Assembly (NCBI GenBank): GCA_035388785.1
Contig: DAOOQN010000004.1
Span: forward strand, 4,318 to 68,317
DNA from: a bacterium
Lineage (GTDB): Bacteria > Patescibacteriota > Patescibacteriia > UBA2196
DNA: 64,000 nt
Reading direction: 5' to 3'
Shown: piece after piece, positions 7,208 through 38,458 of the stretch
How positions within the stretch are numbered: the first letter of the stretch is position 1
Layout: every line of letters begins with the position of its first letter
Position numbers and translations under genes: made by a program
Notes under the pieces: generated by a model
The model's database searches: none
Told to the model about the DNA's origin: nothing
What the model saw: only the letters and a program-made list of their open reading frames with translations

Positions 7208-7711
7208 ATGTTGTTTAACAATAAAAAAATTTCTCAAGGGTTCACTTTGGTAGAACTTTTAGTTGTTGTTTCCATTATGGGCTTACTGGCTACTTTGGCC
7301 ATAGCGGCTTTGCAAAGCGCGCGACAAAAAGGTCGTGATGCGCGCCGTCAGGGAGATATGAAACAAATAAAGACTGCCATTGAACTTTATTTTGATGCGA
7401 ATGGTTTTTATCCTCAATGTGCCGGTAATAATATTTGTACTAGTACTGGCTATCAGGGTAATATCCAAGCATTGGCCATAAGTCCAACCTATATGGTGAC
7501 AATACCCACAGATCCTAGAAACAGTAGTACAGTGTATGGTTATTATTATGCTCGCGGTTATAAAAAAACCGGTCCTAGTACTTTACTTGCTACTGGTTTA
7601 AATTCAGATTACGTTTTAGCCACTCGTCTAGAACTTCCAAATGATGCTGTCACATTAACTCCAAATAATGTTTGGGATAATGTTAATCTGAATTTGTTAT
7701 TGGGAAATTAA
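7208..7711 (+). CDS. Type IV pilin / pseudopilin-like protein with a class III (prepilin) signal
   Basis: The N-terminus KKISQG|FTLVELLVVVSIMGLLATLAI is the canonical prepilin peptidase site (G-1, E+5, hydrophobic helix). A globular C-terminal domain follows. Confidence 0.75.
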   Translation: MLFNNKKISQGFTLVELLVVVSIMGLLATLAIAALQSARQKGRDARRQGDMKQIKTAIELYFDANGFYPQCAGNNICTSTGYQGNIQALAISPTYMVTIPTDPRNSSTVYGYYYARGYKKTGPSTLLATGLNSDYVLATRLELPNDAVTLTPNNVWDNVNLNLLLGN

Positions 7712-7722
7712 AACAAAAACCA

Positions 7723-8238
7723 ATGTCCTTACAAGAACAAAATAGACTGGCAAATGCTAGATTACAGAAATTTTTTGTTTTAGCGGTTGTCGTCTTTGTT
7801 GTAGTTTTATTTATTACTTCTTTGGATGTTATTCAGGCTAAAATTCGGGATCAAAAACGTAAGGCTGATCTGCGGCAAATCAGCTTAGCCCTACAACTCT
7901 ATTTTGATAATTATCAAAAGTTTCCTCAAGTTGAAGATGATGATTGGTCGGGGTGGGATTTAAGTTTTGAACTTGGTGGCTCTCAACAATTATTTTTATC
8001 TAGACTTTCGCAAGTTGGTTATATTGATCACGTACCCGTTGATCCTTTAAATAACATAAATTATCTTTATCGTTATAGTTATTATCCAGCTGGATCTTTT
8101 GGTTGTAGCAAGGCCTTTTTTCTTTTACAAGCACTTAATTTTGAAAGTAGTGAAAAAAAACACGGTTCTGGTTCTTGTCCAGAATTTAATTTTGTTGATT
8201 TAGCTTCCAACGGTTATACCATTCAGGTTTTTGAATGA
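7723..8238 (+). CDS. Pilin-like paralogue lacking the canonical G/E cleavage motif
   Basis: An N-terminal hydrophobic helix (FFVLAVVVFVVVLFITSL) is followed by a block that resembles the preceding pilin (RKADLRQISLALQLYFDNYQKFPQ versus RDARRQGDMKQIKTAIELYFDANGFYPQ). The G-1/E+5 residues are not obvious. Confidence 0.45.
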   Translation: MSLQEQNRLANARLQKFFVLAVVVFVVVLFITSLDVIQAKIRDQKRKADLRQISLALQLYFDNYQKFPQVEDDDWSGWDLSFELGGSQQLFLSRLSQVGYIDHVPVDPLNNINYLYRYSYYPAGSFGCSKAFFLLQALNFESSEKKHGSGSCPEFNFVDLASNGYTIQVFE

Positions 8239-9322: not shown

Positions 9323-10234
9323 TTATTTGTTCCATAATTCAATCATTGCCAGTCTGATGCGACCAGCTAAATCTGGGTAAAAAGAGATGTTGGTTTGGTG
9401 GCTAGAAAAATTACGGCGGATAACTTTAAGCAAGCCGTTTTTTTGTTTAAAACCAATTTCACACAAAATAGTTTTTTTATTGGCAGAGATTTTTTTTAAT
9501 TGAGCGAATAGTTGCCGGTAAGCTTTAAGCCCGTCTTTGCCAGCAAATAATGCTTTGCGCGGTTCAAATTTTAAACCGATTTCTTCTGATCGAGCGGTTA
9601 TTTTTTTGTTGGGTAAATAGGGCAGGTTGGCAGTTATCAACAACTCTTCGCTATTTATGGAGTTGGAGTGTGCGGATTTTATATTTTTTATAAAAGGTGA
9701 CAAGAGATCGCTTTTAAAAAATTTTATTTTATTTTCAACTTCATGCAGTTTAGAATTTTTTTTAGCCACTCTTAAAGCTTGGCTGGAAATATCAACAGCA
9801 CAAATTGGTAATCTGAGATTATTTTTATTTTTTTGTATGTTTTTTAAAATAGCCACGGGAATACAACCAGAACCAGTTCCTACATCAATTAACTCATATT
9901 TTTTATTTGGATTGTTTTTAATAATTTCCAAAACTTTTTCCACCAAGAGTTCGGTTTCGGGGCGGGGGATTAAAACATTTTTGTTTACTAAAAAATCAAG
10001 GCCATAAAATTCTTTATGACCAACAAGATAGGCAATCGGTTCGCCTTTAGCTCGACGTTGAATCAAATTATTAAATTTTATTGTTTGGTTGGGGGTAAGT
10101 TTGGTTTCTGGGTGAGTAAAAATAAAAATTTTGTCTTTTTTTAAGACAAAAGCTAAAATAATTTCGGCATCCAGAATTGAAAATTTATGGCCAATTTTTT
10201 CTTTGATATCCAATAGAGCATCAGCGATTGTCAT
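9323..10234 (-). CDS. prmC: Release factor glutamine N5-methyltransferase (PrmC/HemK)
   Basis: 303 aa. The SAM-binding motif [11 protein letters not shown] and an NLPY motif (the NPPY variant) are present. It overlaps prfA by 4 nt, the classic prfA-prmC operon arrangement. Confidence 0.8.
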
Positions 10235-11271
10235 GTTTGGCTTTTTTTTAACTCCTCAATTATTTTTTCCAACCCCCCATCCATAATCGTGGCAATATTG
10301 TGCCAACTTTGCTTGACACGGTGATCTGTTATGCGATCTTGAGGAAAATTATAAGTGCGTATTTTTTCACTTCTGTCGCCACTACCAACTTGGGTTTTTC
10401 TTTCTGCTGATAAAGCTTGGTGTTTTTGTTCTTCATCTGCTGCTAAAATACGCGCGCGCAAAATTTGCATGGCTTTATCTTTGTTTTGTCCTTGTGAGCG
10501 TTCATCTTGGCATGAAACTACAATACCTGTGGGTAAGTGAGTGATACGTACAGCTGAATGAGTGGTGTTGACGCTTTGTCCGCCATGGCCGCCGGCACAA
10601 AAAGTATCAATTTTTAAATCTTTGGCTTCAATTTTAACATCCACCTCCTCAGCCTCGGGCATAACTGCCACCGTGACCGCCGAGGTGTGTATACGGCCGG
10701 CTTTTTCTGTTTCTGGCACTCTTTGTACACGGTGCGTGCCACTTTCATATTTTAACCAACCATAAACATTTTGGCCTTTGATTTCGAAAATAACTTCTTT
10801 AAATCCACCAATACCAATGCGGCTGGCGGTTATAATATCAGTTTTCCAATTCATTTTTTCTGCGAATCTGGCATACAGGCGAAACATTTCCGCTGCAAAC
10901 AAAGCTGATTCGTCACCGCCAGTTCCAGCTCTAATTTCCATAATAACATCTTTTTTGTCGAGTGGATTTTTTGGGTTTATATACTCTTCTATTATCTGGC
11001 GTAAGTTTTCGTTTTCAAGTTCAAGTTTGGAGTTTTCTTTCACGGCCATGTCTTTTAATTCCAGTTCATCACTAGTCATGAGGTGATTGTTGTCTTTTAT
11101 GTTATTAATATTTTTTTCCAGTTGATTAATTTTTTCCATAACTTCTTTCATTTCTGAAAGTTGTTTTATTGTGCTAATATATTTTTTTTGATCAGTCAAA
11201 ACAGCCGGGTCATTAATAACTCGTTCTAAATCCGCGTATTTTTCTCGTATTGATTGATAAGATGATGTCAT
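10231..11271 (-). CDS. prfA: Peptide chain release factor 1
   Basis: 346 aa. It carries the GGQ motif ([11 protein letters not shown]) and a PET tripeptide in the RF1 position ([17 protein letters not shown]). Confidence 0.9.
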
Positions 11272-11384
11272 AATTTCTAATTTTCAATTTCTAAACAATG
11301 TTTATAAATTATAAATTGAGAATTAAACAAAAAACCTGCCTTGGTGGTTAATTATAGCAGATTTTTTGAGATAATTTAAAACAG

Positions 11385-11699
11385 TTATTTTTTTGTGGTT
11401 TTTTTAGCTGATTTTACCACCTCAACATCCTTAGCTTTCTTGGCTTTTAAAGCTTGTCTTTTGGCAGTTTTACCTTTACTTTTACCAACTAAATTTTGGG
11501 TTTTGACAGTTTTTTCTTTAAATTTTTCTACCCGTCTGGCCGTATCAATTAATTTTTGATGACCGGTAAAAAAAGGATGACAAGCCGAACAAAGTTCAAC
11601 CTTAATTTCTTTTTGGGTGGAGCCGGTTTTAAAAGTGTTGCCGCAAGCGCAGACCACCACCGCGTCTTTATAATAGGTTGGATGAATGTCTTTTTTCAT
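11385..11699 (-). CDS. rpmE: 50S ribosomal protein L31 with a Lys-rich C-terminal extension
   Basis: The L31 core is clear ([29 protein letters not shown] ... [10 protein letters not shown]). It is followed by a ~45-aa K/A-rich tail. Confidence 0.8.
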
Positions 11700-11901
11700 A
11701 AATAAAATAATTTTAACTATTTTTAATTATCATCAGTTTAGCATGCTTTTTTAATCTTGACAAGAGACGGCTTTAAATGTTAGTCTTAATAGGTTAAAAA
11801 ATTATTAATAAATCACACACTTAAGTTTTTTATCTTGGTTGTCCTGCTAAAATTAACCTAGATATTTTTTAGACTCAAGTGGCGGGAAAAAGGACACAAT
11901 T

Positions 11902-12636
11902 ATGAAAAATGTTGAGCTAAAAAGCCTGATGCAAGCAGGTGTTCATTTTGGACATAAGTCTGTTAATTGGAATCCAAAAATGGGCCCATTTTTATATGGC
12001 ACCAAAGCTGGCGTCCATATTTTTAATTTGGAAAAAACAAAATCCCAATTAGAAGAAGCTTACGAATTTATAAAAAAAACAGTAGCCGGCGGTGGTACTG
12101 TATTATTTGTCGGTACCAAACCACAGGCCAAAGATATTGTCAGAAAATATGCCGCAGAAGCCGGTATGCCTTTTGTGACTGAACGCTGGCTGGGTGGCAC
12201 ATTGACCAACTTTGTGGAAATCAACAAATTGGTTAAAAAGTTAAATCATCTCATTCAAAGCTCAAATCATGAAGACTACGAGCAAAAATATACCAAAAAA
12301 GAGCGTTTAATTTTTAGCGAAGAGATGGTTGCATTGGAAAAAACAATTGGTGGTATTGTGACTTTACTAAAATTACCAGACGTAATTTTTGTTGCCAGTG
12401 TCAAGGCGGATAAAATTGCTGTTACTGAAGCCATAAAAACCAATGTGAAAATCGTGGGCATTTGTGATTCCAATACTAACCCTGATAAAGTTGATTATGT
12501 AGTACCAGCCAACGACGATGCACTTAAATCCATAGAACTTTTGGCAGCTTATTTTGCCGCCGCGGTTAAAGCAGGTAAAGAAGAAGCCCTACAACAAAAG
12601 CAAGAAATCCAAATAGAAAACAAAAATGTTGAATAA
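11902..12636 (+). CDS. rpsB: 30S ribosomal protein S2
   Basis: 244 aa. The S2 signature runs through the protein (GVHFGHKSVNWNPKMGPFLYG ... ). A good RBS (AAGGA) lies upstream. Confidence 0.95.
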   Translation: MKNVELKSLMQAGVHFGHKSVNWNPKMGPFLYGTKAGVHIFNLEKTKSQLEEAYEFIKKTVAGGGTVLFVGTKPQAKDIVRKYAAEAGMPFVTERWLGGTLTNFVEINKLVKKLNHLIQSSNHEDYEQKYTKKERLIFSEEMVALEKTIGGIVTLLKLPDVIFVASVKADKIAVTEAIKTNVKIVGICDSNTNPDKVDYVVPANDDALKSIELLAAYFAAAVKAGKEEALQQKQEIQIENKNVE

Positions 12637-12678
12637 AAATAATTTAGTTTTAAAATTTTAAAATTAATAAAAAACAAT

Positions 12679-13269
12679 ATGCAGATTGATTCCAAAATAA
12701 TTCAAAAGTTAAGAGCCACAACTGGTGCTGGCATTATGGATGTAAAAAAAGCTCTAGAAGAAGCAGGCGGTGATGAACAAAAAGCTTTGGAAATTTTAAG
12801 AATTAGAGGACAAAAAATTGCTACCAAAAAACAGGAAGAACGTGTGGCAAAAGAAGGCGCTATTGCTGCGTATGTGCATGCCAACGGTAAGGTGGCTGCT
12901 TTAGTTATGTTGGCTTGCGAAACCGATTTTGTGGCTAGAAATGAAGAATTTAAAAGTTTAGCCCATGATATTGCGATGCAAGTGGCAGCCATGAACCCAC
13001 AATTTTTAACAGCTGATAAAGTACCGCAGGATGTTGTGGAAAAAGAAAAAGAAATTATGCGTGCCAGTTTGCAAGATGAGAAAAAGCCGGCTGCTGTTCT
13101 GGAAAAGATTATGGCTGGCAAGCTGCAAAAGTTTTTTGAGGAAGTTTGTCTTTTGGAACAAAAATTTATCAAGGATGACACCAAAACCATTGCTGACTTA
13201 ATTAATGAACAGACAGCTAAGTTGGGTGAAAAGATTGAAGTCAAAAAAATTGCTCGTTTAAGTTTATAA
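12679..13269 (+). CDS. tsf: Elongation factor Ts (short form)
   Basis: 196 aa. An N-terminal UBA-like block (KLRATTGAGIMDVKKALEEAGGDEQKALEILR) is present, and the gene sits immediately downstream of rpsB, the conserved rpsB-tsf pair. Confidence 0.9.
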   Translation: MQIDSKIIQKLRATTGAGIMDVKKALEEAGGDEQKALEILRIRGQKIATKKQEERVAKEGAIAAYVHANGKVAALVMLACETDFVARNEEFKSLAHDIAMQVAAMNPQFLTADKVPQDVVEKEKEIMRASLQDEKKPAAVLEKIMAGKLQKFFEEVCLLEQKFIKDDTKTIADLINEQTAKLGEKIEVKKIARLSL

Positions 13270-13280
13270 CTCTTTTTTCT

Positions 13281-14102
13281 ATGTTGGTTGCTGAAGTTCA
13301 ATTTACACCTTGGGATAAAGTTTATTGGTTTAATCCCGCTGGCTCTGATTTGTGTGTTGGTGATTATGCGGTGGTAAATACTGATTTGGGTATGGAATTG
13401 GGTGCAGTGGTCAGTTTAAAAGAATTAACCGAGAGTGAAATTGGAACGCGCGAGATTAAGAATATTGTTCGTAAAGCCAATTTATCAGATTTAGATAAGG
13501 CCAAAGAAAGAAATACGCACAAAAAAGAAGTCATGGATACCTTTCGTTTGGCAGCGCAAAAAAATAATTTGGATATGAAACTGGTAGATGTGCATTTTTC
13601 CTTTGATGGCGGTCGTATTACATTTGCTTTTATTGCTGGTTCGCGGTTGGATTTTCGTGGTTTAGTAAAAGACTTAACACATACTTTTCAAAAATCAATT
13701 CGCATGCAACAACTAGGCGTGCGTGATGAAGCTAAATATTTGGGTAGTTGGGGTCCATGTGGTCGTGGTTTGTGTTGCCAGAATTTTTTAAAAGATTTGG
13801 GTCAGGTTTCAGCTGAATACGTGGAGATTCAGCAATTAATGCATCGTGGTAGTGATCGTTTGTCAGGTATGTGCGGGCGCTTACGTTGTTGTCTGCGTTA
13901 TGAAAAAGAAACTTATGAAAAATTAACCGCCAGCTTACCAGCCATTGGCACCAAGGTGCGAACTGATCATGGTCGGGGTGTTATCATTGCACATAATATT
14001 TTACGTCAAAGTGTTAATGTTCAGTTGGGGGGTGAGGGTGGTGCAACAGTAGAAATTCCCATTAAAAAGAATGATCAAGAAGAGGAAAAAAAAGATGGCT
14101 AA
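13281..14102 (+). CDS. PSP1 C-terminal domain protein (YaaT/RicT-like)
   Basis: 273 aa. Shows the PSP1 pattern plus the Cys-rich block GPCGRGLCCQNFL ... CGRLRCCLRYE that is characteristic of YaaT/RicT. Confidence 0.75.
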   Translation: MLVAEVQFTPWDKVYWFNPAGSDLCVGDYAVVNTDLGMELGAVVSLKELTESEIGTREIKNIVRKANLSDLDKAKERNTHKKEVMDTFRLAAQKNNLDMKLVDVHFSFDGGRITFAFIAGSRLDFRGLVKDLTHTFQKSIRMQQLGVRDEAKYLGSWGPCGRGLCCQNFLKDLGQVSAEYVEIQQLMHRGSDRLSGMCGRLRCCLRYEKETYEKLTASLPAIGTKVRTDHGRGVIIAHNILRQSVNVQLGGEGGATVEIPIKKNDQEEEKKDG

Positions 14103-26190: not shown

Positions 26191-26670
26191 ATGGCTTCCT
26201 TTATTCAACACAATCCAACCGAAACCAAGCCAGACGATAAATTTGAACATAATTTATCTGGCACAGAAACGACTACGGTTTTGACGCCGGAACTTAATAA
26301 ACCACAAGCAACCACGTCAAGTAGTCCTGTTTTAGTGTCAGCTATTTCTGACGTCAATGATGTTCAAAATCAATCTGGTGTAAGTTATAATAAAGATCCT
26401 TTACATGTGGCTATAGAAGATATTTTGGAAGAAAACTTAGCCGACCTTTATGTATCCTTAAGTCCGACTGAACAAATTAATTTTAAAAGGAAAGGCGACG
26501 AAACTGCTGGTAAAATTATAGATCTTTTGGCTACAACACAAGCTACTTTTAAAAAAATTTTTAATTTTATTTTAACGTGGCTAAAAACAATCCCGGGCGT
26601 TAATAAGTTTTTTTTGGAACAAGAAGCCAAGATCAAAGCAGATAAAATTATGCAACTAAAAATAGATTAA
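26191..26670 (+). CDS. Hypothetical protein at the head of ATPase locus A
   Basis: 159 aa. The N-terminus is rich in Thr, Ser and Pro and looks disordered. No motif I can assign. A 5-nt gap separates it from the ATPase gene. Confidence 0.4.
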   Translation: MASFIQHNPTETKPDDKFEHNLSGTETTTVLTPELNKPQATTSSSPVLVSAISDVNDVQNQSGVSYNKDPLHVAIEDILEENLADLYVSLSPTEQINFKRKGDETAGKIIDLLATTQATFKKIFNFILTWLKTIPGVNKFFLEQEAKIKADKIMQLKID

Positions 26671-26675
26671 TTTTT

Positions 26676-29246
26676 ATGCCTCCCTATGTTCCAACCTCAC
26701 CGCTAGAAACAGCTGGCCAAAATTTTTTTAATAGCCCATCTTTTTATGTTGGACTTTTTTTAATTGCCTTTATTGTTTTAGTCGTAATTTGTCTTTTGAT
26801 ATATCGCGCTTACGCGAAACATAATTATAAATTACCAGCTAAATATCGTCAGGTGGTTTTATTAATTTCAATGCCTAAAGAAGCACTGTCTGATAAAGAA
26901 GGTGGCAATGTAAATTCTATTGAAAAAATTCGTGAACAGATATCCTGGGCGGAAAATTTATGGGCACAAATTGGTGGCTTGAAAGCAGAAAAGGGATTCA
27001 AGGCCTGGTTGTATGGTCGGCACGATCATTTGTCTTTGGAGATTGTCGCGCATCAAAAGATGATTTATTTTTATATTGCAGTACCAAAATATTTGCAAAC
27101 CTATCTTGAGCAACAGCTACAAGCGCAATATTCTTATGCTCAAGTTGAAGAGGTTCCGGATTATAATATTTTTTCACCCACCGCGAGCGTTGTTTGTGCT
27201 AGTGTCAAACTTGAGAAACAAAACATGTTTCAAATTAAAACTTATAAAGAATTTGATGCTGACCCGTTAAACTCATTAACCAACATTTTAAGTAAACTTG
27301 GATCTGATGATAGCGCTGCCATCCAATTTGTTGTGCGCTCGGCTCACAAAAAATGGCGTACTGCAGGCTTAAAAATTGCCGCAGCCATGCAGCAGGGTAA
27401 ATCTTTGAAGGATGCTTTAAAAGCTAATAATAAAGATTTATTAAATACTTTAAGTAAGGGTTATAATGCACTGCTAAGCCAAGAAAGTGACAAAAAAAAC
27501 GATCAAGACAAAAGAGATGGTTTAACACCGGGTAGTTATCGTCTGTCGGCCAAAGAAGAAGAATTGGTCAAAAAAATTCAAGAAAAAAGTTCCAAAGCTG
27601 GTTTGGATGTTAATATTCGAGTGGTTGTGGCTGCTCAGAATTTACCGCTTGCTGATGCTTATTTGGCTAATATATTAAATTCTTTTGCTCAATATAATGT
27701 TTATGAATTTGGTAATGCTTTTAAGGTAGCCAAAAATAGTGGTGATGATAAAAATATTTCCGCTTTTATACATAGAATTTTTAATGATAAGAATAGCTTT
27801 GTCTTAAATACAGAAGAGTTGGCTTCGATTTTTCATTTTCCACTACCTTCCTGTGAAACACCAAACATACATTGGTTAGGTGCACGTAAGGCCGCAGCGC
27901 CGGTTAATATTCCGACTGAAGGTGTTGTGCTTGGTAAAAATATTTTTCGTGGCGGAGAAACACTGATTCGTATGAAACAAGAAGATCGCATGCGGCATAC
28001 ATATATTATCGGTATGACTGGTGCTGGCAAATCAGTTTTAATGGAAGAAATGGCCAAACAAGACATTGGGGCCGGTCGAGGTGTTTGTTTTATTGATCCA
28101 CACGGCACGGCTATTGATCGTATTATGCCCTGTATTCCAAAAGAAAGGCTTGAAGATGTTATCTATTTTGATCCTGCTGATACGGACCGACCAATTGGTT
28201 TAAATATGTTGGAAGCCAAGACACAACAAGAAATGGATTTTGCCACTTCAGAAATGATTAGTATTTTTTACAAACTTTTACCAGATCCTGCCATGGCCGG
28301 GCCAATGTTTGAACATTATATGCGTAATGCTTTGCTGGCTTTAATGGCTGATCAGGATGATCCTGGAACCTTGGTGGAGTTAGGACGAATTTTTACTGAT
28401 GAAGATTATCGTAAGAAAAAATTACATTATGTGCGCGATATTTTGGTAAAAGATTTTTGGGAAAGAGAATATGTAGCCTCGCAACGTGGCTCTATGGCTT
28501 CAGATATGCTTTCATATGTCATTTCTAAAACAGGTCGTTTTGTAGAAAATGAAATGATGCGCAATATTATTGGTCAGTCAATTTCAGGGTTTAATTTTCG
28601 CCAAGTTATGGATGAGGGTAAAATTTTGTTAGTCAATCTATCCAAAGGTAAAATTGGCGAGACCAATAGTAGCCTTTTGGGTTTAATTATTGTCTCGAAG
28701 CTACAGATGGCGGCCATGGCCAGGGCGGATTTGCCAGAAGAAAAAAGAAAAGATTTTATGTTATATATTGATGAGTTTCAAAATTATACCACTGATTCTA
28801 TGGCTATCATTTTAGCTGAAGCCAGAAAATATCGTTTAGCATTGATTATGGCTCATCAATATATTACGCAACTAGTCAAAGGTCAGGATACTTCCATTCG
28901 CGATGCTGTCTTTGGCAATGTGGGTAGTATGATTATTTTCCGTATTGGCGTAGAAGATGCCGAGATAATCGCCAAACAGTTTGCGCCCGTCTTTAATCAA
29001 CAAGATTTAATTAATATTGAAAAACGCAATGCTTATGTTAGACTCTTAATTGATGGTACAGCCAGTCGTCCCTTTAACATGGAATCCATGCCTTGGACTT
29101 TTGGTGATGAAAAAATTGTGACTGCCGTGAGTGAGTATTCTCGTCTAAAATATGGTCGTCCCAAAGATGAAGTCGAGAAGGAGATTATCCGACGGTCTAA
29201 AATAGGTGCTCTAGGTAAGGCTGCAGTTGATAATGAAGTTGAATAA
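26676..29246 (+). CDS. Membrane-anchored P-loop ATPase of the HerA/FtsK/TraD-VirD4 (T4CP-like) superfamily, fused form
   Basis: 856 aa. One N-terminal TM helix, a ~400-aa uncharacterised domain, then an ATPase with Walker A IIGMTGAGKSV, a CFIDPHG block, and Walker B YIDEFQNY. It is paralogous to the split pair at 35090-38458. Confidence 0.7.
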   Translation: MPPYVPTSPLETAGQNFFNSPSFYVGLFLIAFIVLVVICLLIYRAYAKHNYKLPAKYRQVVLLISMPKEALSDKEGGNVNSIEKIREQISWAENLWAQIGGLKAEKGFKAWLYGRHDHLSLEIVAHQKMIYFYIAVPKYLQTYLEQQLQAQYSYAQVEEVPDYNIFSPTASVVCASVKLEKQNMFQIKTYKEFDADPLNSLTNILSKLGSDDSAAIQFVVRSAHKKWRTAGLKIAAAMQQGKSLKDALKANNKDLLNTLSKGYNALLSQESDKKNDQDKRDGLTPGSYRLSAKEEELVKKIQEKSSKAGLDVNIRVVVAAQNLPLADAYLANILNSFAQYNVYEFGNAFKVAKNSGDDKNISAFIHRIFNDKNSFVLNTEELASIFHFPLPSCETPNIHWLGARKAAAPVNIPTEGVVLGKNIFRGGETLIRMKQEDRMRHTYIIGMTGAGKSVLMEEMAKQDIGAGRGVCFIDPHGTAIDRIMPCIPKERLEDVIYFDPADTDRPIGLNMLEAKTQQEMDFATSEMISIFYKLLPDPAMAGPMFEHYMRNALLALMADQDDPGTLVELGRIFTDEDYRKKKLHYVRDILVKDFWEREYVASQRGSMASDMLSYVISKTGRFVENEMMRNIIGQSISGFNFRQVMDEGKILLVNLSKGKIGETNSSLLGLIIVSKLQMAAMARADLPEEKRKDFMLYIDEFQNYTTDSMAIILAEARKYRLALIMAHQYITQLVKGQDTSIRDAVFGNVGSMIIFRIGVEDAEIIAKQFAPVFNQQDLINIEKRNAYVRLLIDGTASRPFNMESMPWTFGDEKIVTAVSEYSRLKYGRPKDEVEKEIIRRSKIGALGKAAVDNEVE

Positions 29247-29259
29247 TAAAATATTTTTT

Positions 29260-29844
29260 ATGTTAGAAAAGCTTTTTGGTTCCCGTACTAGAATAAAACT
29301 TCTTAAACTTTTTTTGACTGACCAAAATAGTAAGTTTTTTGTGCGTGAAATTACGCGCTTGACTGGTGAAAAAATAAATTCAGTTCGTCGAGAATTAGAT
29401 AATTTATCAGAACTGGGTTTACTGGAAGTAGTTGAAGAAATTACATTTGATAAAAAAGAAGAAAATAAGAAATTTTATCGCGTCAATAATAATTTTCCTT
29501 TATTGCGGGCTTTACAAGAAATTTTACTCAAAGCCAGACTTTTGGTGGAAAAAACATTGGCAACCAAGATTGATAAAATGGGTCATGTAAAATTTTTAGC
29601 ATTGAGCGGTTTTTTTGTGAACGATCCATATGCCCCGACTGATTTTTTAATTGTAGGACAGATTGATAAAAAAAAGTTAGCGCGTTTGGTTAATCAAATT
29701 TCCAAAGAATTTGGACAGGAATTACGTTATACCTGTTTTTCAACCCAAGAATTTAATTATCGCAATAAAATAACTGATAAATTTTTGTTTGAAGTTTTGG
29801 AAGGCAAAAAAATTGTGGTGCTTGATAGCTTGAGTAAAGAGTAG
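29260..29844 (+). CDS. wHTH regulator-like protein with a C-terminal degenerate minimal nucleotidyltransferase-like domain
   Basis: An N-terminal ArsR-like wHTH (LFGSRTRIKLLKLFL ... FVREITRLTGEKINSVRRELDNLSELGLLE) is followed by a C-terminal LSGFFVNDPYAPTDFLIVG block, which looks like an MNT GS...DxD motif with one Asp replaced. I prefer the ATG at 29260, because the track start at 29227 overlaps the upstream gene. Confidence 0.5.
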   Translation: MLEKLFGSRTRIKLLKLFLTDQNSKFFVREITRLTGEKINSVRRELDNLSELGLLEVVEEITFDKKEENKKFYRVNNNFPLLRALQEILLKARLLVEKTLATKIDKMGHVKFLALSGFFVNDPYAPTDFLIVGQIDKKKLARLVNQISKEFGQELRYTCFSTQEFNYRNKITDKFLFEVLEGKKIVVLDSLSKE

Positions 29845-31039: not shown

Positions 31040-32707
31040 ATGAGTTTATCAACCAAATCACAGAACCGCTATAAATTGGCTGGCATTATTATTTTAGCCA
31101 TTTTTTGTGCTCTGATCGTTTATCCAAAAGTTCCTACTGGTACACCTCTGGAAAATTTTTGGAATAAATTTAAATTTCGTCTAGGCCTTGATTTGCAGGG
31201 TGGCGCGCACTTGGTCTATCAAGCCGACACCAGTCAAGTTGAAGGACGCGATCAAGCTTCGGCTGTGGCCGGTGTACGTGATGTTATTGAAAGGCGAGTG
31301 AATGCTTTTGGTGTATCCGAACCAGTTGTCCAAACTAATATGGTGGGTAACGATTATCGTGTTATCGTAGAATTGGCTGGTGTCAAAGACGTTGATCAAG
31401 CCATTCAAATGATTGGTGAAACACCTCTTTTGGAATTTAAAACTCAAAATCCTAATTATAGTTCTGAATTAACAGATGCTCAAAAAGCAGAATTAGAAAA
31501 ATATAACAACGAACAGAAAGCCAAAGCTGAAAAAGTTTTAAAAGAGACTTTGGTAAAAAATTCCGACTTTGAAAGTTTGGCCAAACAATATTCCGAAGAC
31601 CCAGGTTCTAAAGACCAGGGTGGAGATTTGGGTTGGGCCAAAAGAGGTATGTTTGTCAAAGAGTTTGAAGACGAGATTTTTGATATTTTGCAACCTGGTC
31701 AAACTTCACAAATTTTAGTTAAAACCAGTTTTGGTTATCATATAATTAAAAAAATTGCGGTGCGTGGTGAGGGTGTAGACTTAGAAGTCCATGCACAACA
31801 TATTTTATTTAAAACACAAAACGAAGCTGATATTGTTTCTGACGCTAACCAATGGCTCAATACTCAGCTATCTGGTAAAAACTTAACACGCGCTCAGGTG
31901 CAATTTGATCCACAATCTGGCCAACCGCAAGTTGGTTTAGAATTTAATGACGAAGGCAAAACATTATTTGCCGAAATTACTGAACAAAATGTTGGTAAAC
32001 CCGTGGCCATTTTTTTGGATGGTCAACCTATTTCTGTGCCCAGAGTTGATGAACCCATAAAAGAAGGCAAAGCAGTTATTAGTGGTCGTTTTAACATAAA
32101 AGAAGCCAAACAATTGGTGGAACGTTTAAATGCCGGAGCTTTACCAGTTCCAATTACTTTAATTTCACAAGAGACTGTTGGTGCTTCACTGGGACAAGAA
32201 TCTTTAAATAAGAGTTTATTTGCTGGCATTATTGGTTTAGTTGCTGTGGCTTTGTTTATGTTATTTTTTTATCGTCTACCTGGTTTAATTTCAGTAATTG
32301 CTTTAATTATTTATGCTTTGATTAACTTAATGCTTTATAAAACATTGTCTATAACCCTAACTTTGGCTGGCATTGCTGGTTTTATTCTGTCGATTGGTAT
32401 GGCTGTGGATGCTAATGTATTAATTTTTGAACGTCTAAAAGAAGAACTAAAAGCTGGCCGTGAAGTTTCTTCAGCAGTTGACGAGGGTTTTAAAAGAGCT
32501 TGGACGTCTATTCGTGATTCAAACATTTCATCTCTTATCACCTGTGTTATTTTATATTGGATAGGTACTTCAATGGTCAAAGGTTTTGCATTAACCTTGG
32601 CATTGGGTATTTTTATTTCTTTATTTTCTGCCATTACTGTCACCAGAACTTTTTTGAAGCTTTTCTTGATCAAATCTTTCAAAGATAAAAAATGGCTTTT
32701 TGGTTAA
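31040..32707 (+). CDS. secD: Protein translocase subunit SecD with an embedded parvulin (PpiC-type) PPIase domain
   Basis: 555 aa. A TM1 helix and the SecD P1 motif LGLDLQGGAHLVY are followed by a complete parvulin signature (SEDPGSKDQGGDLGWAKRGMFVKEFEDEIFDILQPGQTSQILVKTSFGYHIIKK) at about aa 145-250. The SecD head domain and six C-terminal TM helices follow. Confidence 0.9.
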   Translation: MSLSTKSQNRYKLAGIIILAIFCALIVYPKVPTGTPLENFWNKFKFRLGLDLQGGAHLVYQADTSQVEGRDQASAVAGVRDVIERRVNAFGVSEPVVQTNMVGNDYRVIVELAGVKDVDQAIQMIGETPLLEFKTQNPNYSSELTDAQKAELEKYNNEQKAKAEKVLKETLVKNSDFESLAKQYSEDPGSKDQGGDLGWAKRGMFVKEFEDEIFDILQPGQTSQILVKTSFGYHIIKKIAVRGEGVDLEVHAQHILFKTQNEADIVSDANQWLNTQLSGKNLTRAQVQFDPQSGQPQVGLEFNDEGKTLFAEITEQNVGKPVAIFLDGQPISVPRVDEPIKEGKAVISGRFNIKEAKQLVERLNAGALPVPITLISQETVGASLGQESLNKSLFAGIIGLVAVALFMLFFYRLPGLISVIALIIYALINLMLYKTLSITLTLAGIAGFILSIGMAVDANVLIFERLKEELKAGREVSSAVDEGFKRAWTSIRDSNISSLITCVILYWIGTSMVKGFALTLALGIFISLFSAITVTRTFLKLFLIKSFKDKKWLFG

Positions 32708-33838: not shown

Positions 33839-34966
33839 ATGAGCGACATTTTAGATAAAGTCATATCTTCGGCCGATTTTAAAGAAAAAACCGCTATCTC
33901 TTGGACAGAGATTGTAAATTCTTTATTGGCTCTAATAAAGGCGCGTGAAGCCGAAATTTTACGTTTACGCTCTGGTTTGTATGACAATAAAGAACATACT
34001 TTGGAAGAAATTGGACGTAAAATGAATTTAACTCGTGAACGAGTGCGTCAATTAGAGAAAAACGCCAAAGATGACATCAAGGCTCATAAAAATTTTGATG
34101 GCATTATGGCACCAGCTAAAAACGCAGTTGAGCGGGCTTTGAATGAACATGGCGGCCTTTCCACTAAAGAAAGAATTTTGCAAACCGTTCTTATTAACTA
34201 TGAAATTGAAGATAATAAAAAGTTTTTACAATTTTTAATTGATAATTTTATTGATGAAGTGCAAGACGTTAAAAATAATCAGTTTGGCGAGGGTTGGCAT
34301 TTAAATGAACAGTATTTGAATTTGGCAGCTGAAGTTTTAGATCAAATTAAAATTTTAATTGAAACTAAAAATAATTTAGTGCAAGAAGATGAGTTGTTGG
34401 AAAATTTTCAAAAAACAGATTTTTATATAAATAATCAGGATAAATTTTTGCCTTTTTTAAGCAAAAATAGCAATGATTTAAGAAAGGTTCTAACTTCTTA
34501 TTTGGATTTATCGCATGAATTTGGTAAAACCCCCTTTAAACAGTGGGGTAAAGCAGACTGGCGCACAGTCACCCCCCGCAGGATTAATGATAAAATTTAT
34601 TCAATTTTGGATTGGTATAAACAACCAATGCACTTTCGTGATATTGCCGATAAAATTAACGCCGCCAAGTTTGATAAAAAAATGGCACATTCGGCCACCA
34701 TTCACAACGACCTGATTGCTGATGAACGTTTTGTTTTAATTGGTCGTGGTGTCTATGCTTTAAAGGATTGGGGTTATAAAAGTGGCGTAGTGGCTGATTT
34801 AATTGAAAAAATTATTAAGGGTGCTGAACAGCCTTTAAATAAAGAAGAAATTATTGCTGAAATTTTAAAACAAAGAGATGTAAAAGCTAACACTGTTTTG
34901 TTAGCACTTAATAAAGATGGTCGCTTTGAAAAAACAATTACTGGTGGATATAAATTAAAAATATAA
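33839..34966 (+). CDS. Sigma-70 region 4-like HTH protein with a C-terminal HARE-HTH-like domain
   Basis: 375 aa. An N-terminal block (EILRLRSGLYDNKEHTLEEIGRKMNLTRERVRQLEKNA) matches the sigma region 4 / LuxR-like HTH. A C-terminal block (IYSILDWYKQPMHFRDIADKIN ... VLIGRGVYALKDW) resembles the HARE-HTH of the RNAP delta subunit. Regions 1-3 of a sigma factor are absent. Confidence 0.5.
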   Translation: MSDILDKVISSADFKEKTAISWTEIVNSLLALIKAREAEILRLRSGLYDNKEHTLEEIGRKMNLTRERVRQLEKNAKDDIKAHKNFDGIMAPAKNAVERALNEHGGLSTKERILQTVLINYEIEDNKKFLQFLIDNFIDEVQDVKNNQFGEGWHLNEQYLNLAAEVLDQIKILIETKNNLVQEDELLENFQKTDFYINNQDKFLPFLSKNSNDLRKVLTSYLDLSHEFGKTPFKQWGKADWRTVTPRRINDKIYSILDWYKQPMHFRDIADKINAAKFDKKMAHSATIHNDLIADERFVLIGRGVYALKDWGYKSGVVADLIEKIIKGAEQPLNKEEIIAEILKQRDVKANTVLLALNKDGRFEKTITGGYKLKI

Positions 34967-35089: not shown

Positions 35090-36502
35090 ATGGAGTTTAT
35101 TTTGGATTTATTAAATTTAGATATAGTTAGTTTATCTACTTTGGGTGCCCATAACCCTTTTTATCTTATTTGGTTTTTCTTTATCCACGGTGGTTGGATA
35201 CTTTTTATTATCACATTTTTATTTCTTAGTCCGGTTCTGTGGATGGATTGGCGCCAAGGCTTGTATGCCAAGACCATTAAATGGATTTTTTTAGCTGTTG
35301 ATGTGCCGAGAAATAATGAACAATCACCCAAGGCAGTTGAACAAATTTTTAATCAAATCTGGGGCTCGATAACCGATTACACACTCTGGGCTAAGTTATG
35401 GCAGGGCAAATTCATGCCAAGTTTTAGTTTGGAATTGGTTTCTATTGATGGTTATATACAATATATTATTCGTACACCCAAACCATGGCGTGATTTAATT
35501 GAGTCAGCAATTTATGCTCAATATCCTGATGCTGAAATAGCCGAGATTGAAGATTATACCAAAGATATTACGCCAGATAATTTTGTGGAGAAGGGTTATG
35601 ATTTGTGGGGTACACAACTACAATTGACCAATTTAGAATATTATCCCATTCGAACGTATCCTTTTTTTGAACATTCTATTGCTAAAAAAATAGTTGATCC
35701 TATGTCGGCTCTACTAGAGATGATGAGCAAGTTAGGTCGTGGCGAACAGTTGTGGTATCAAATCATAATTAAACCCGTTGGTGATGATGTCTGGAAAGTT
35801 GGAGCTGAAAAATTAGTTAAAAAATTAATTGGCGCCGAAACCAAAGAAGAAACCCAAACTATTTTAGATGGTATTTTTAGTCGACTTTATAATACCACTA
35901 ATTTTTTATTACCACTGCAAAGCACTGAACAAAAAAAGGAACAAAAATTACCCTCCAAAGTTCTGTATATGTCAAAGGGGGAGTTGGAAACTGTGGCGGC
36001 TATCGAGATGAAAGCTTCTAAGACTGGTTTTAAAACCAAAATGCGCATGATTTATATTGGCAAAAAAGATGCGTTTTTTAAGCCACGTGGTTTGTCGCCA
36101 TTTTTTGGTGCTTTGCGACAATATGCTGGAGCTAATGGTTTTAAGCCAGCTGGTAAGACAGCCACTAAGGCCGAATATTTTTTTATTAAACCACGCATGT
36201 TATATAAACAAAAAAGAATCTTAAAACATTACAAATCACGCGCGTTGGATGCTGGAGTCAAAGAAGACGGTTATCTTTTAAATGTGGAAGAATTGGCCTC
36301 GGTCTATCACTTTCCTAGTATTGAAGTACCCACCAAGATGGTGCACACCTCTTTGAGTAAAAAAGTTCAGGCACCCATGAACATTCCCTTTGATGATTTT
36401 TTTGAACCGGAAATTTTGAGTAAAAAAGAACCTCAGTCTACAGATAGTATTACAAAAGATTCTGGATCGACTATGGCTCCGCCATCAAATTTACCAATTT
36501 AA
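35090..36502 (+). CDS. TM-anchored uncharacterised domain protein, the N-terminal half of split ATPase module B
   Basis: About 470 aa. It is homologous block-for-block to residues ~60-430 of the fused protein at 26676 (for example ELASVYHFPSIEVP versus ELASIFHFPLPSCETP). I prefer the ATG at 35090 over the TTG at 35081. Confidence 0.55.
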   Translation: MEFILDLLNLDIVSLSTLGAHNPFYLIWFFFIHGGWILFIITFLFLSPVLWMDWRQGLYAKTIKWIFLAVDVPRNNEQSPKAVEQIFNQIWGSITDYTLWAKLWQGKFMPSFSLELVSIDGYIQYIIRTPKPWRDLIESAIYAQYPDAEIAEIEDYTKDITPDNFVEKGYDLWGTQLQLTNLEYYPIRTYPFFEHSIAKKIVDPMSALLEMMSKLGRGEQLWYQIIIKPVGDDVWKVGAEKLVKKLIGAETKEETQTILDGIFSRLYNTTNFLLPLQSTEQKKEQKLPSKVLYMSKGELETVAAIEMKASKTGFKTKMRMIYIGKKDAFFKPRGLSPFFGALRQYAGANGFKPAGKTATKAEYFFIKPRMLYKQKRILKHYKSRALDAGVKEDGYLLNVEELASVYHFPSIEVPTKMVHTSLSKKVQAPMNIPFDDFFEPEILSKKEPQSTDSITKDSGSTMAPPSNLPI

Positions 36503-36511
36503 TTTTTTTGT

Positions 36512-38458
36512 ATGACTGTTTACGACCACGATCACGATCGTGAAATAACATATTTTGCTGCTACAAATTTTCGCAATCAAATGCTAAAGTTTGGCATTAA
36601 AACCGAGGATCGTCGGAGGCATGTTTATATTCTTGGTAAAACCGGTAGCGGTAAAACCACTTTGGAAGCCAATATGGCTCTGCAAGATATTGAACGCGGT
36701 CATGGTATGTGTTTGGTAGATCCACATGGCGATGTCCTAAATTCAGTTTTGGATTATATTCCGTCTCACCGGGTTAATGATGTGATTTACTTTAATCCAT
36801 CTGACACCGCATACCCAATAGCTTTTAATATTTTGGAAAATATTAATCCCGAACATAAGCATTTAGTGGCTTCTGGTTTAATGAGTGTTTTTAAAAAAAT
36901 ATGGGCCAATTTATGGTCGGCGCGCATGGAATATATTTTGAATAATTGTATTTTGGCTCTTTTGGATTCACCGGGTAATACATTATTGGGCATTATGCGC
37001 ATACTCACAGATAAAGATTTTCGTCGTAAAATTGTCGATAATATTAAAGATCCGGTGGTTAAATCTTTTTGGGTCAATGAATATGCCAATTATCAAGATC
37101 GATTTCGTCAGGAAGCCATTGCGCCAATTCAAAACAAAGTTGGACAGTTTTTATCTTCGGCGGTTATTCGTAATATTGTGGGTCAAACAAAATCTACCAT
37201 TGAACCCAGAAAAATAATTGATGAGGGAAAAATTTTACTGCTTGATTTGGCTAAAGGTAAAATTGGTGAAGACAATTCTTCTTTGTTGGGAGCCATGATG
37301 ATTACCAAAATTTGGTTGGCAGCCATGTCGCGTGTTGATATACCGGAAAACGAGCGTCTTGATTTTTATCTATATGTGGATGAGTTTCAGAATTTTGCCA
37401 CCGAATCTTTTGCTGATATTTTATCTGAAGCCAGAAAATATCGTTTAAATTTAACTGTAGCGCATCAATATATTGCCCAACTTGTTTCGCCTGATTCCAC
37501 CCGTGTTAAAGATGCTGTTTTTGGCAATGTGGGCACCATAATTTGTTTTCGTGTTGGTGGTGGTGATGCTAAAGAGTTAATTAAAGAATTTGAACCGACT
37601 TTTTTGGAAGAAGATCTTGTTAACATTGGTAAACATGAAATATTTTTAAAACTGATGATTGACGGTATGGCTTCGGCACCATTTAGTGCCAAAACCCTGC
37701 CGCCACTTTCCACTGGTCGTGAGAATAAAAATCGTGAAAAAATTGTGCGCATTTCACGTGAACGTTATTCTAATACCAAAGAAGAAGTTGAAGAAAAAAT
37801 TATGCGTTGGTCTGGTGTTGAAGAAATGTTTAAAGAGACTGCCAAATCTGAATATGTGGATGAAGAAAAAATGGTTTACAAAGAGACTCAAACTAAAACC
37901 AACAATTTAAGCACCAAGATAAAGGTAGTTGAAACAAAACCTGGGCAAGTGCAAACAGACGATAAAAAACATCTGGATGCTTTTTGTGATAATTGTGGTC
38001 AACCAACTCGTATTAACTTTCTACCAGATTTAAGTAAATCAATTTTTTGTCGTGATTGTTTGAAAGAGTTTAAAAAAGGCAGTATTGATCCACATAAATT
38101 AAAATCAAAAAACGGTCATCTTTCGGATATTGTTAAACAACAAAAGGCGGGTTTAGAACCAACTTTAGCAGTGTCAGAAGGGGCTATTTTAAGCCCTCAA
38201 AATACAAAAGTCTTGGAAAAAAGTTTAGCATCTGCTACAGTTACGGTACCCCCATCACCCGATCAAGTTTTGACAGCCAAAATTAAAAAGGCAAAAATAA
38301 ATTTTTTAGACAATCTAAAATATAAACCAGAGGAAATAAGTCAATCAACCGTCGGCTTGGATGCTTTAAAAGATATAAATCAAGTAGTACCCTTTAATAA
38401 GATTGGAACTAAAAAGGAATCTCAAAAAATTGATCCAGGGCAGGTGATCAGGTTTTAA
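36512..38458 (+). CDS. HerA/FtsK/TraD-VirD4-superfamily ATPase, the C-terminal half of split module B, with a C-terminal Zn-ribbon extension
   Basis: 648 aa. Walker A ILGKTGSGKTT, an LVDPHG block, and Walker B YVDEFQNF are present. It aligns with the C-terminal half of 26676, and adds a ~250-aa tail containing CDNCGQ ... CRDC. Confidence 0.7.
   Translation: MTVYDHDHDREITYFAATNFRNQMLKFGIKTEDRRRHVYILGKTGSGKTTLEANMALQDIERGHGMCLVDPHGDVLNSVLDYIPSHRVNDVIYFNPSDTAYPIAFNILENINPEHKHLVASGLMSVFKKIWANLWSARMEYILNNCILALLDSPGNTLLGIMRILTDKDFRRKIVDNIKDPVVKSFWVNEYANYQDRFRQEAIAPIQNKVGQFLSSAVIRNIVGQTKSTIEPRKIIDEGKILLLDLAKGKIGEDNSSLLGAMMITKIWLAAMSRVDIPENERLDFYLYVDEFQNFATESFADILSEARKYRLNLTVAHQYIAQLVSPDSTRVKDAVFGNVGTIICFRVGGGDAKELIKEFEPTFLEEDLVNIGKHEIFLKLMIDGMASAPFSAKTLPPLSTGRENKNREKIVRISRERYSNTKEEVEEKIMRWSGVEEMFKETAKSEYVDEEKMVYKETQTKTNNLSTKIKVVETKPGQVQTDDKKHLDAFCDNCGQPTRINFLPDLSKSIFCRDCLKEFKKGSIDPHKLKSKNGHLSDIVKQQKAGLEPTLAVSEGAILSPQNTKVLEKSLASATVTVPPSPDQVLTAKIKKAKINFLDNLKYKPEEISQSTVGLDALKDINQVVPFNKIGTKKESQKIDPGQVIRF

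Follow-up and report, generated by a model that had tools for sequence, protein, structure and literature searches.

A 64,000-nucleotide (nt) stretch of contig DAOOQN010000004.1, from the Patescibacteriota assembly GCA_035388785.1 (UBA2196), was analyzed; this whole 64-kb stretch is called the window below. It carries two loci that are ancient paralogues of each other. Locus A encodes a fused protein, and locus B encodes the same architecture as two separate proteins. Together they represent a distinct branch of type IV secretion system (T4SS) ATPases, in which a VirD4/TrwB-type motor is combined with a cytoplasmic DUF8128 module that bears the sole membrane anchor. The best explanation of the whole is a domesticated and duplicated variant of type IV coupling proteins (T4CPs) with a VirB4-like docking domain, which is of conjugation-type origin and most likely feeds a chromosomal T4SS. 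We give this complete explanation an even chance.

The 856-amino-acid (aa) fused protein of locus A was analyzed with its AlphaFold model (pLDDT 91.6, pTM 0.85), and its domains are listed in Table 1. The 15 residues before its hydrophobic segment (residues 17–49) contained no Lys or Arg, and the following 15 residues contained three. Because of this distribution, the positive-inside rule predicts that the N terminus faces outward and that the remainder of the protein is cytoplasmic. Open reading frame (ORF) and motif positions confirmed the ORFs, the single transmembrane (TM) helix, the Walker A motif GMTGAGKS, the DPHG block, and the Walker B motif DEFQNY, all as claimed in an earlier reading of the DNA alone (the original prediction). 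The Walker A, Walker B, DPxG, and HQ motifs were invariant in 77/77 family members, so the ATPases are predicted to be active and under purifying selection.

The second, split copy that the original prediction had placed at 35090–38458 was confirmed as well. Residues 27–413 of the fused protein aligned with the stand-alone DUF8128 protein (473 aa in its longer ORF form) at 23% identity (E 1e-23), and residues 424–854 aligned with the 648-aa ATPase at 44% identity (E 1e-122). Judged by these alignments, loci A and B are paralogous, being the fused and split forms of one architecture. Fusion, as seen in locus A, is probably the derived state. The stand-alone DUF8128 protein (model pLDDT 86.5) has one TM segment (residues 26–57 in the 473-aa numbering) and a disordered tail with a conserved PPxNLP end. 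The two modules are physically coupled: they form one protein at locus A, and at locus B only 9 nt lie between their genes. When DUF8128 neighborhoods were compared in 80 species representatives, the ATPase gene lay directly downstream of DUF8128 in 63, with three more cases at contig ends.

The ~370-aa N domain, which the original prediction could not assign, proved assignable. PF26449 (DUF8128) was precomputed on homologues, among them P0001 (93% identical) and P0121 (100% identical). When the full fused model was searched with Foldseek, it matched TrwK chains collinearly over more than 900 columns, whereas TrwB matched the C-terminal half only. The model has the two-domain architecture of VirB4, with a VirB4-type alpha/beta N domain followed by a C-terminal RecA-like ATPase. 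On the models, DUF8128 is predicted to fold like the N-terminal domain of VirB4. The original prediction had itself counted such an assignment as telling against its reading. A literature search for DUF8128 found no paper.

Profile searches placed both ATPases among T4CPs. The scores for loci A and B, respectively, were 35 and 40.6 bits with TrwB_AAD_bind (cutoff 20.5), 27.5 and 24.2 bits with T4SS-DNA_transf (cutoff 20.1), and 22.6 and 26.1 bits with TraG-D_C (cutoff 22). The HerA-type DUF87 model gave 21.6 bits for locus A, which is under its cutoff of 23.2, and 30.4 bits for locus B, which is over it. The best NCBIfam models were TraD, the CD1115-type VirD4, and CedD, all far under their equivalog cutoffs. 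The nearest PDB sequences were TrwB and DotL. In BLASTP, the locus B ATPase matched the T4CP TrsK of pGO1 over Walker B and the C-terminal region (E 1e-7), and it matched the VirB4-like TrsE of pGO1 at the P-loop only (E 1e-4). The VirB4 model TIGR00929 reached 28 bits, its cutoff being 643, and the match was confined to the P-loop. In a comparison of ATPases reported as unlabelled figures, the values were 29.5 for the VirB4 C-terminal domain (4ag5), 28.1 for both TrwB and DptH, 25.5 for HerA, 24.0 for DotL, 21.8 for Cagbeta, 17.7 for TcpA, and 17.1 for FtsK. The proposed membership of the HerA/VirB4/VirD4 clade was borne out. The HMM check that the original prediction had suggested, once run, gave T4CP families above the Pfam gathering thresholds for both loci, and the family has already been counted among VirD4-type T4CPs (PMC12102498).

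Compared with known relatives, the proteins show both shared and distinguishing features. As in T4CPs, intact Walker A and B motifs lie in a RecA-like fold with an all-alpha insertion. VirD4/TrwB T4CPs usually have a two-TM N-terminal domain directly before the nucleotide-binding domain. Here there is one TM helix, and the ~370-aa VirB4-like DUF8128 stands between it and the ATPase or is a separate TM protein; the locus B ATPase itself is TM-free. Also unlike VirD4/TrwB T4CPs, the genes are chromosomal, duplicated, and near-universal in the phylum, and neither a relaxase or relaxosome nor a VirB4-based T4SS was found with them in the window. The difference from VirB4/TrwK is that sequence profiles favor a T4CP and that no VirB4-family profile matched; in addition, Patescibacteria hold a separate, genuine VirB4 (PMC12102498). 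As for HerA, the N domain is VirB4-like and not a HAS barrel, DUF87 was over threshold only for locus B, and no NurA, Sir2, or nuclease neighbors were found near the loci in the window.

The DUF8128 and T4CP pair also occurs outside Patescibacteria. A tblastn search with the N domain returned 36 plasmid records, mostly haloarchaeal (Natrinema, Halomontanus, Haloterrigena, and Haladaptatus) with a few Bacillaceae megaplasmids. The same search with the ATPase half returned 711 plasmid records, among them conjugative plasmids of Bacillus, Streptomyces, and Sulfolobus. In Natrinema gelatinilyticum, the gene of a DUF8128 homologue (hhalign probability 95%) is flanked by those of a 1,105-aa 'conjugal transfer protein' and of a 1,021-aa T4CP, with a pilin gene upstream. 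In Haloterrigena, the gene of a VirB4-like AAA_10/P-loop_TraG ATPase comes first, followed by DUF8128 (hhalign probability 92%) and then 'VirD4'. Like locus B, these pairs are split, with DUF8128 directly upstream of the T4CP gene (overlapping it there), and they share a C-terminal EELA..H.P motif. Unlike the loci studied here, they are on plasmids beside conjugation-type ATPase genes, and their T4CPs are much longer (912–1,021 aa). Because it is found on plasmids next to other conjugation-type ATPase genes, we regard the split pair as an older, cross-domain module. The same surroundings, with a pilin gene on one plasmid, suggest that the pair began within a conjugation-type T4SS of the monoderm or archaeal kind.

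Within Patescibacteria, the fused protein had more than 2,000 homologues at 52–93% identity, from Kuenen-, Uhr-, Buchanan-, and Kerfeldbacteria and Parcubacteria-group genomes. In NCBI records they go by the name 'type IV secretion system DNA-binding domain-containing protein'. The split DUF8128 protein had more than 1,200 homologues, and the whole DUF8128 family comprised 3,741 clusters at 50% identity. The nearest species representative in the DUF8128 scan was from UBA2196 (94% identity). Both paralogues were on the same contig in several distant relatives (contigs of 75,891, 389,568, 54,548, and 58,911 bp). The gene order with corA, dnaK–dnaJ, rluB, secDF, and PBP2 was the same or similar in relatives at 52–93% identity. 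In Patescibacteria, the pair has become part of the chromosome, where it is near-universal, passes on vertically, and lacks a relaxase.

Locus A has its own small partner. The original prediction had described the fused ATPase as flanked by a small acidic protein and a winged helix-turn-helix (wHTH) protein, and its neighborhood check was run. The order of divergent corA, the small protein gene, and the fused ATPase gene was kept in 5/5 relatives, with a counterpart of the 159-aa small protein in the same position each time (32–83% identity); the wHTH gene was not kept beyond close relatives. The small protein is acidic as described, though only mildly so (22 D+E vs 16 K+R). Its N half is variable and of low complexity, and its C-terminal ~90 aa are conserved and probably helical, with the motif WL..IPGVNKFFLEQEAKIKADKI. 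The family contains at least 1,296 clusters and has no Pfam domain, and all of its named matches are from Patescibacteria or unclassified bacteria. The 159-aa protein is thus a dedicated, conserved partner of the fused paralogue. A relationship between it and the sigma-like protein of locus B was considered and rejected (hhalign probability 0.1%).

The order at locus B is secD, secF, a gene with Sigma70_r4 and HARE-HTH domains, DUF8128, and the ATPase. Upstream of DUF8128, secF or the sigma-like gene was found in 71/80 species representatives, and six more had no upstream room. The Sigma70_r4/HARE-HTH gene itself lay directly upstream in 43/80. Its 375-aa product is a possible regulator, DNA-binding partner, or adaptor, and its membership in the system is uncertain.

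A published survey bears directly on these genes. Quinonero-Coronel et al. 2025 (PMC12102498) analyzed 3,035 Patescibacteria genomes and found VirB4 in 2,417 (80%). They counted 5,713 VirD4-type T4CP homologues in 2,918/3,035 genomes (96%), which is ~1.96 per genome, and only 109 relaxases across the surveyed genomes. The authors left exaptation possible. Since about two copies per genome fits a fused plus a split pair, the orphan T4CPs of the survey are almost certainly, by inference, the same genes as those described here. The loci do not represent a new kind of system, because the family has been catalogued through Pfam DUF8128 plus T4CP, NCBI naming, and the 2025 survey. Absent from that paper are the DUF8128 (VirB4 N-domain-like) domain, the fused and split pair, the small partner, and the secDF and corA synteny. 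Relative to the literature found, the new elements are the predicted VirB4 N-domain fold of DUF8128, the fused/split pair, the 159-aa partner, and the haloarchaeal plasmid link.

If the pair serves a T4SS, it might work as follows. The N-out TM helix would hold both DUF8128 and the ATPase at the cytoplasmic side of the membrane, as predicted from the sequence and the model. By analogy with VirB4 in the R388 structure, membrane partners, possibly VirB4 itself, would dock on DUF8128, which would also be the platform for oligomerisation. The ATPase ring, presumably a hexamer as in TrwB, VirB4, and HerA, would hydrolyze ATP to push a polymer, either DNA or unfolded protein, toward a membrane channel. 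This channel would most likely be the chromosomal T4SS, encoded elsewhere in 80% of Patescibacteria. The 159-aa partner could act as an adaptor or a regulator of the fused paralogue, and this role is a guess.

Several results weigh against the explanation as a T4CP variant serving a T4SS. No T4SS genes were found in the window. Only structure connects DUF8128 with VirB4, as the VirB4 profiles PF03135 (CagE_TrbE_VirB) and AAA_10 gave no match at E < 0.1. The pGO1 protein TrsD, which stands alone and resembles the VirB4 N terminus, was tried as a DUF8128 relative and was rejected at the sequence level (hhalign probability 0.3%). The PADLOC mad8 model of MADS defence matched the ATPase halves (27921–29165 and 36512–37800) with 66 and 57 bits, above every Pfam T4CP model. 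According to PMC12102498, only 148 of the 5,713 T4CP genes are near virB4, T4CPs occur in more genomes than VirB4 does, and the t4cp gene of Southlakia epibionticum is non-essential for epibiotic growth, where T4SS genes are essential. These three observations together argue against an obligatory service to the T4SS. The lack of VirB genes in the window says little by itself, because 80% of genomes carry virB4 and so few T4CP genes lie near it.

The strongest rival is a stand-alone motor that is independent of the T4SS. In it, the two paralogues would perhaps form a hetero-complex like CedB and CedD, use another channel, and import or segregate DNA or move protein without VirB4. The original prediction had preferred a stand-alone machine to an ICE (integrated conjugative element) remnant. 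The ICE was rightly set aside, on the grounds of housekeeping synteny across distant Patescibacteria and flat GC content; the stand-alone machine as the better reading is possible and unproven, as a T4SS may be encoded elsewhere in the genome. The survey figures that weigh against T4SS service count in favor of such a motor, and so do the conserved surroundings of each locus (the small protein and corA at locus A, secDF and the Sigma70_r4/HARE-HTH gene at locus B) and the zinc finger on the locus B ATPase. The Sulfolobales proteins CedB and CedD, which are both required for chromosomal DNA import (PMC11868833), provide a parallel. They too are two co-occurring chromosomal paralogues with a TM segment, a VirB4 N-domain-like domain, and a HerA/VirB4-type ATPase, and they have no relaxase (PMC11868833). 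However, each of the two Ced proteins covers the VirB4 N-terminal domain in part only, and they take the place of VirB4; Patescibacteria usually have a VirB4 in addition. The CedD model NF053655 gave 21.7 bits for locus A and 36.2 bits (E 2.8e-9) for locus B, both far under the cutoff of 600, which places neither locus in the Ced family.

Other observations speak against a stand-alone motor. The pair adjoins other conjugation-type ATPase genes outside Patescibacteria, no alternative channel gene is conserved beside either locus, and no CedA-like channel gene was adjacent in the window. The adjacency to secDF may reflect nothing more than a conserved operon. Saccharibacteria depend on ComEC and type IV pili for natural competence (PMC12857230, citing Wang 2023), so a dedicated route for DNA uptake exists already. 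Weighing both sides, we consider the stand-alone motor a tentative possibility, somewhat doubtful. A stronger form is unlikely, namely a self-contained, phylum-universal, CedB/CedD-like hetero-assembly that imports host-derived DNA or macromolecules independently of the T4SS, and that is also a surviving VirB4–VirD4 intermediate, a T4CP retaining the VirB4 N domain.

A substitute for FtsK/SpoIIIE, acting as a septal pump for chromosome segregation, would suit a membrane-anchored ATPase of the FtsK–HerA superfamily amid envelope and division genes (PBP2, ftsW, and mreBC in the window). The ATPases gave no FtsK_SpoIIIE Pfam match and have no gamma domain, the part that binds FtsK-orienting polar sequences (KOPS), and we regard this role as improbable. 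A role in anti-phage defence, as an ATPase of the MADS (mad8) or HerA type that possibly acts with the adjacent PDC-M05A-like wHTH protein, is more improbable still. The mad8 scores given above point toward it, and mad8 may itself be a member of the same ATPase branch. However, no other genes of the mad1–mad8 operon were present, the only further match being a weak one of mad3 to a P-loop, so the MADS and PDC-M05 matches are isolated single genes. The wHTH gene is not conserved beside the ATPase, and no partner of the nuclease, Sir2, or methyltransferase kind was observed. Defence systems are patchy; this family, in contrast, belongs to the core genes, keeps its synteny, and is near-universal. 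Least probable is a remnant or cargo of an ICE or plasmid: T4CP-family ATPases are typical of mobile elements, as the 711 plasmid records illustrate, but the conserved gene order, the invariant catalytic motifs, the near-universal presence in the phylum (PMC12102498), the housekeeping content and flat GC (0.32–0.40) of the window, and the absence of any integrase, relaxase, or repeats seen there effectively refute it.

The T4CP variant with a VirB4-like docking domain, if it is correct, raises several hypotheses: that DUF8128 docks to VirB3, VirB4, or VirB6, that the fused and split forms join in a hetero-assembly, and that the 159-aa protein is a dedicated partner. It also bears on the divergence of the two T4SS ATPases, VirB4 and VirD4. 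Patescibacteria live as obligate epibionts, and their genomes are very small. Even so, nearly every one retains this ATPase in two copies, and the function of the copies is an open point in the account of their essential T4SS.

Table 1. Features of the two loci and their neighbors, in window coordinates.
Feature	Position	Strand	Details
Small partner protein	26191..26670	+	159 aa; stop 5 nt before fused ATPase gene
Fused DUF8128–T4CP ATPase	26676..29246	+	856 aa; Pfam T4CP matches; PF26449 on homologues; AlphaFold model
Single N-terminal TM anchor, residues ~17–49	26724..26822	+	Kyte-Doolittle maximum 3.26; within model helix 21–49
DUF8128 domain, residues ~55–415	26838..27920	+	alpha/beta domain, predicted VirB4 N-terminal-domain fold
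RecA-like ATPase domain with helical insertion, residues ~416–830	27921..29165	+	
Walker A GMTGAGKS	residues 446–453, nt 28011–28034	+	motif position
DPHG	residues 474–477 of 856-aa protein	+	motif position
Walker B DEFQNY	residues 699–704, nt 28770–28787	+	motif position
wHTH protein	29227..29844	+	205 aa (TTG start); likelier 194 aa from ATG 29260; outside the system
Sigma70 region 4 + HARE-HTH protein	33839..34966	+	375 aa; Sigma70_r4 45 bits, HARE-HTH 29.8 bits; no sigma region 2
Stand-alone DUF8128 protein	35090..36502	+	470 aa from ATG 35090 (473 aa from 35081); P0121 100% identical, 470 aa, PF26449
Soluble T4CP-type ATPase	36512..38458	+	648 aa, no TM; starts 9 nt after DUF8128 gene
CxxC-x17-CxxC treble-clef zinc finger	nt 37970–38065, residues 487–518	+	long C-terminal tail of locus B ATPase; zf_Tbcl_2 34 bits, TIGR04272 35.3 bits

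About 50 of the 62 ORFs of at least 110 aa in the window were scanned; the remainder were mostly opposite-strand ORFs overlapping annotated genes. No VirB, relaxase, integrase, or FtsK genes were found among the scanned ORFs, in agreement with the original prediction. The scanned ORFs were housekeeping genes or had no Pfam match, apart from one pilin-like gene. The housekeeping genes included dnaE, ftsW/rodA, ribosomal protein genes, RF1, the hrcA–grpE–dnaK–dnaJ cluster, corA, rluB, and tsaB, together with secD, secF, PBP2, mreB, mreC, mnmA, secA, ackA, POR, and recJ.

The wHTH gene was rejected as a partner of locus A. No homologue followed the fused gene in three of the relatives (L003, L004, and L005), and the gene was kept there only in close relatives. 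In another (L006), a 56%-identical homologue follows rluB in the split-locus region, ~13 kb from the fused gene on the same contig. The start at ATG 29260 is the most likely one, as it was so called in a 93%-identical relative. With it, the 20-nt overlap with the fused gene disappears. The protein gave only a weak Pfam HTH_20 match, and a PDB sequence search with its 205-aa form returned nothing significant. It matched PADLOC PDC-M05A over nearly its full length (E 4.9e-21) and, more weakly, the wHTH region of Csa3. Its C-terminal half contains an 'SG...TDFLIVG' stretch that looks like a degenerate minimal-nucleotidyltransferase motif, a candidate by appearance only.

Several smaller features were observed at locus B. 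Split DUF8128 proteins carry a linker motif, A-P-x-N-I-P, at residues 431–436, which aligned with APVNIP at residues 408–413 of the fused protein. The PPxNLP motif at their extreme C terminus (window 36380–36502) is a second one and is nearly invariant (P468, L471, and P472); it may be a tethering peptide that stands in for the covalent link to the ATPase. The zinc finger of the locus B ATPase was present in some relatives (L001 and L006) and absent in others (L007 and L008), and it might serve to bind nucleic acid or a partner. Region 4 of the sigma-like protein also matched MzaA of the MZA defence system. The most constant upstream neighbor of locus B was secDF. The SecD homologue (window 31040–32707) has a PpiC-type rotamase insert (Pfam Rotamase and Rotamase_3) in the 93%-identical relative and in L006–L008.

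The gene after DUF8128 was not an ATPase gene in 14/80 species representatives. In at least three of them (L047, L068, and L081; about 9400–13500), it was a glycosyltransferase-like gene with the N terminus 'RIGIDARFYGP', followed by a gene for a 780–900-aa protein, so that this alternative setting recurs. Two Pontibacillus candidates were rejected: a 'sigma factor-like HTH' gene showed no similarity to the sigma-like protein of locus B, and an unannotated 479-aa ORF beside the DUF8128 gene is not the ATPase. On the Priestia megaterium megaplasmid pFDU301A (L093, 692250–695618), whose record is unannotated, the ATPase match after DUF8128 was in three pieces over 2.4 kb. In Miltoncostaea oceani (match H8), the ATPase-matching gene bears the annotation LAGLIDADG homing endonuclease. 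These cases suggest that, outside the candidate phyla radiation, some ATPases of the family carry inteins or have decayed into pseudogenes.

T4SS loci of the class ABY1 often hold comF, recG, and radA (PMC12102498). Judging by the named homologues, the genome studied here may be a member of ABY1. The sole pilus-related gene found in the window was the type IV pilin-like gene at 7208–7711 (N_methyl, 31 bits), ~19 kb from locus A. It is followed by a 171-aa ORF (7723–8238) without a Pfam match.

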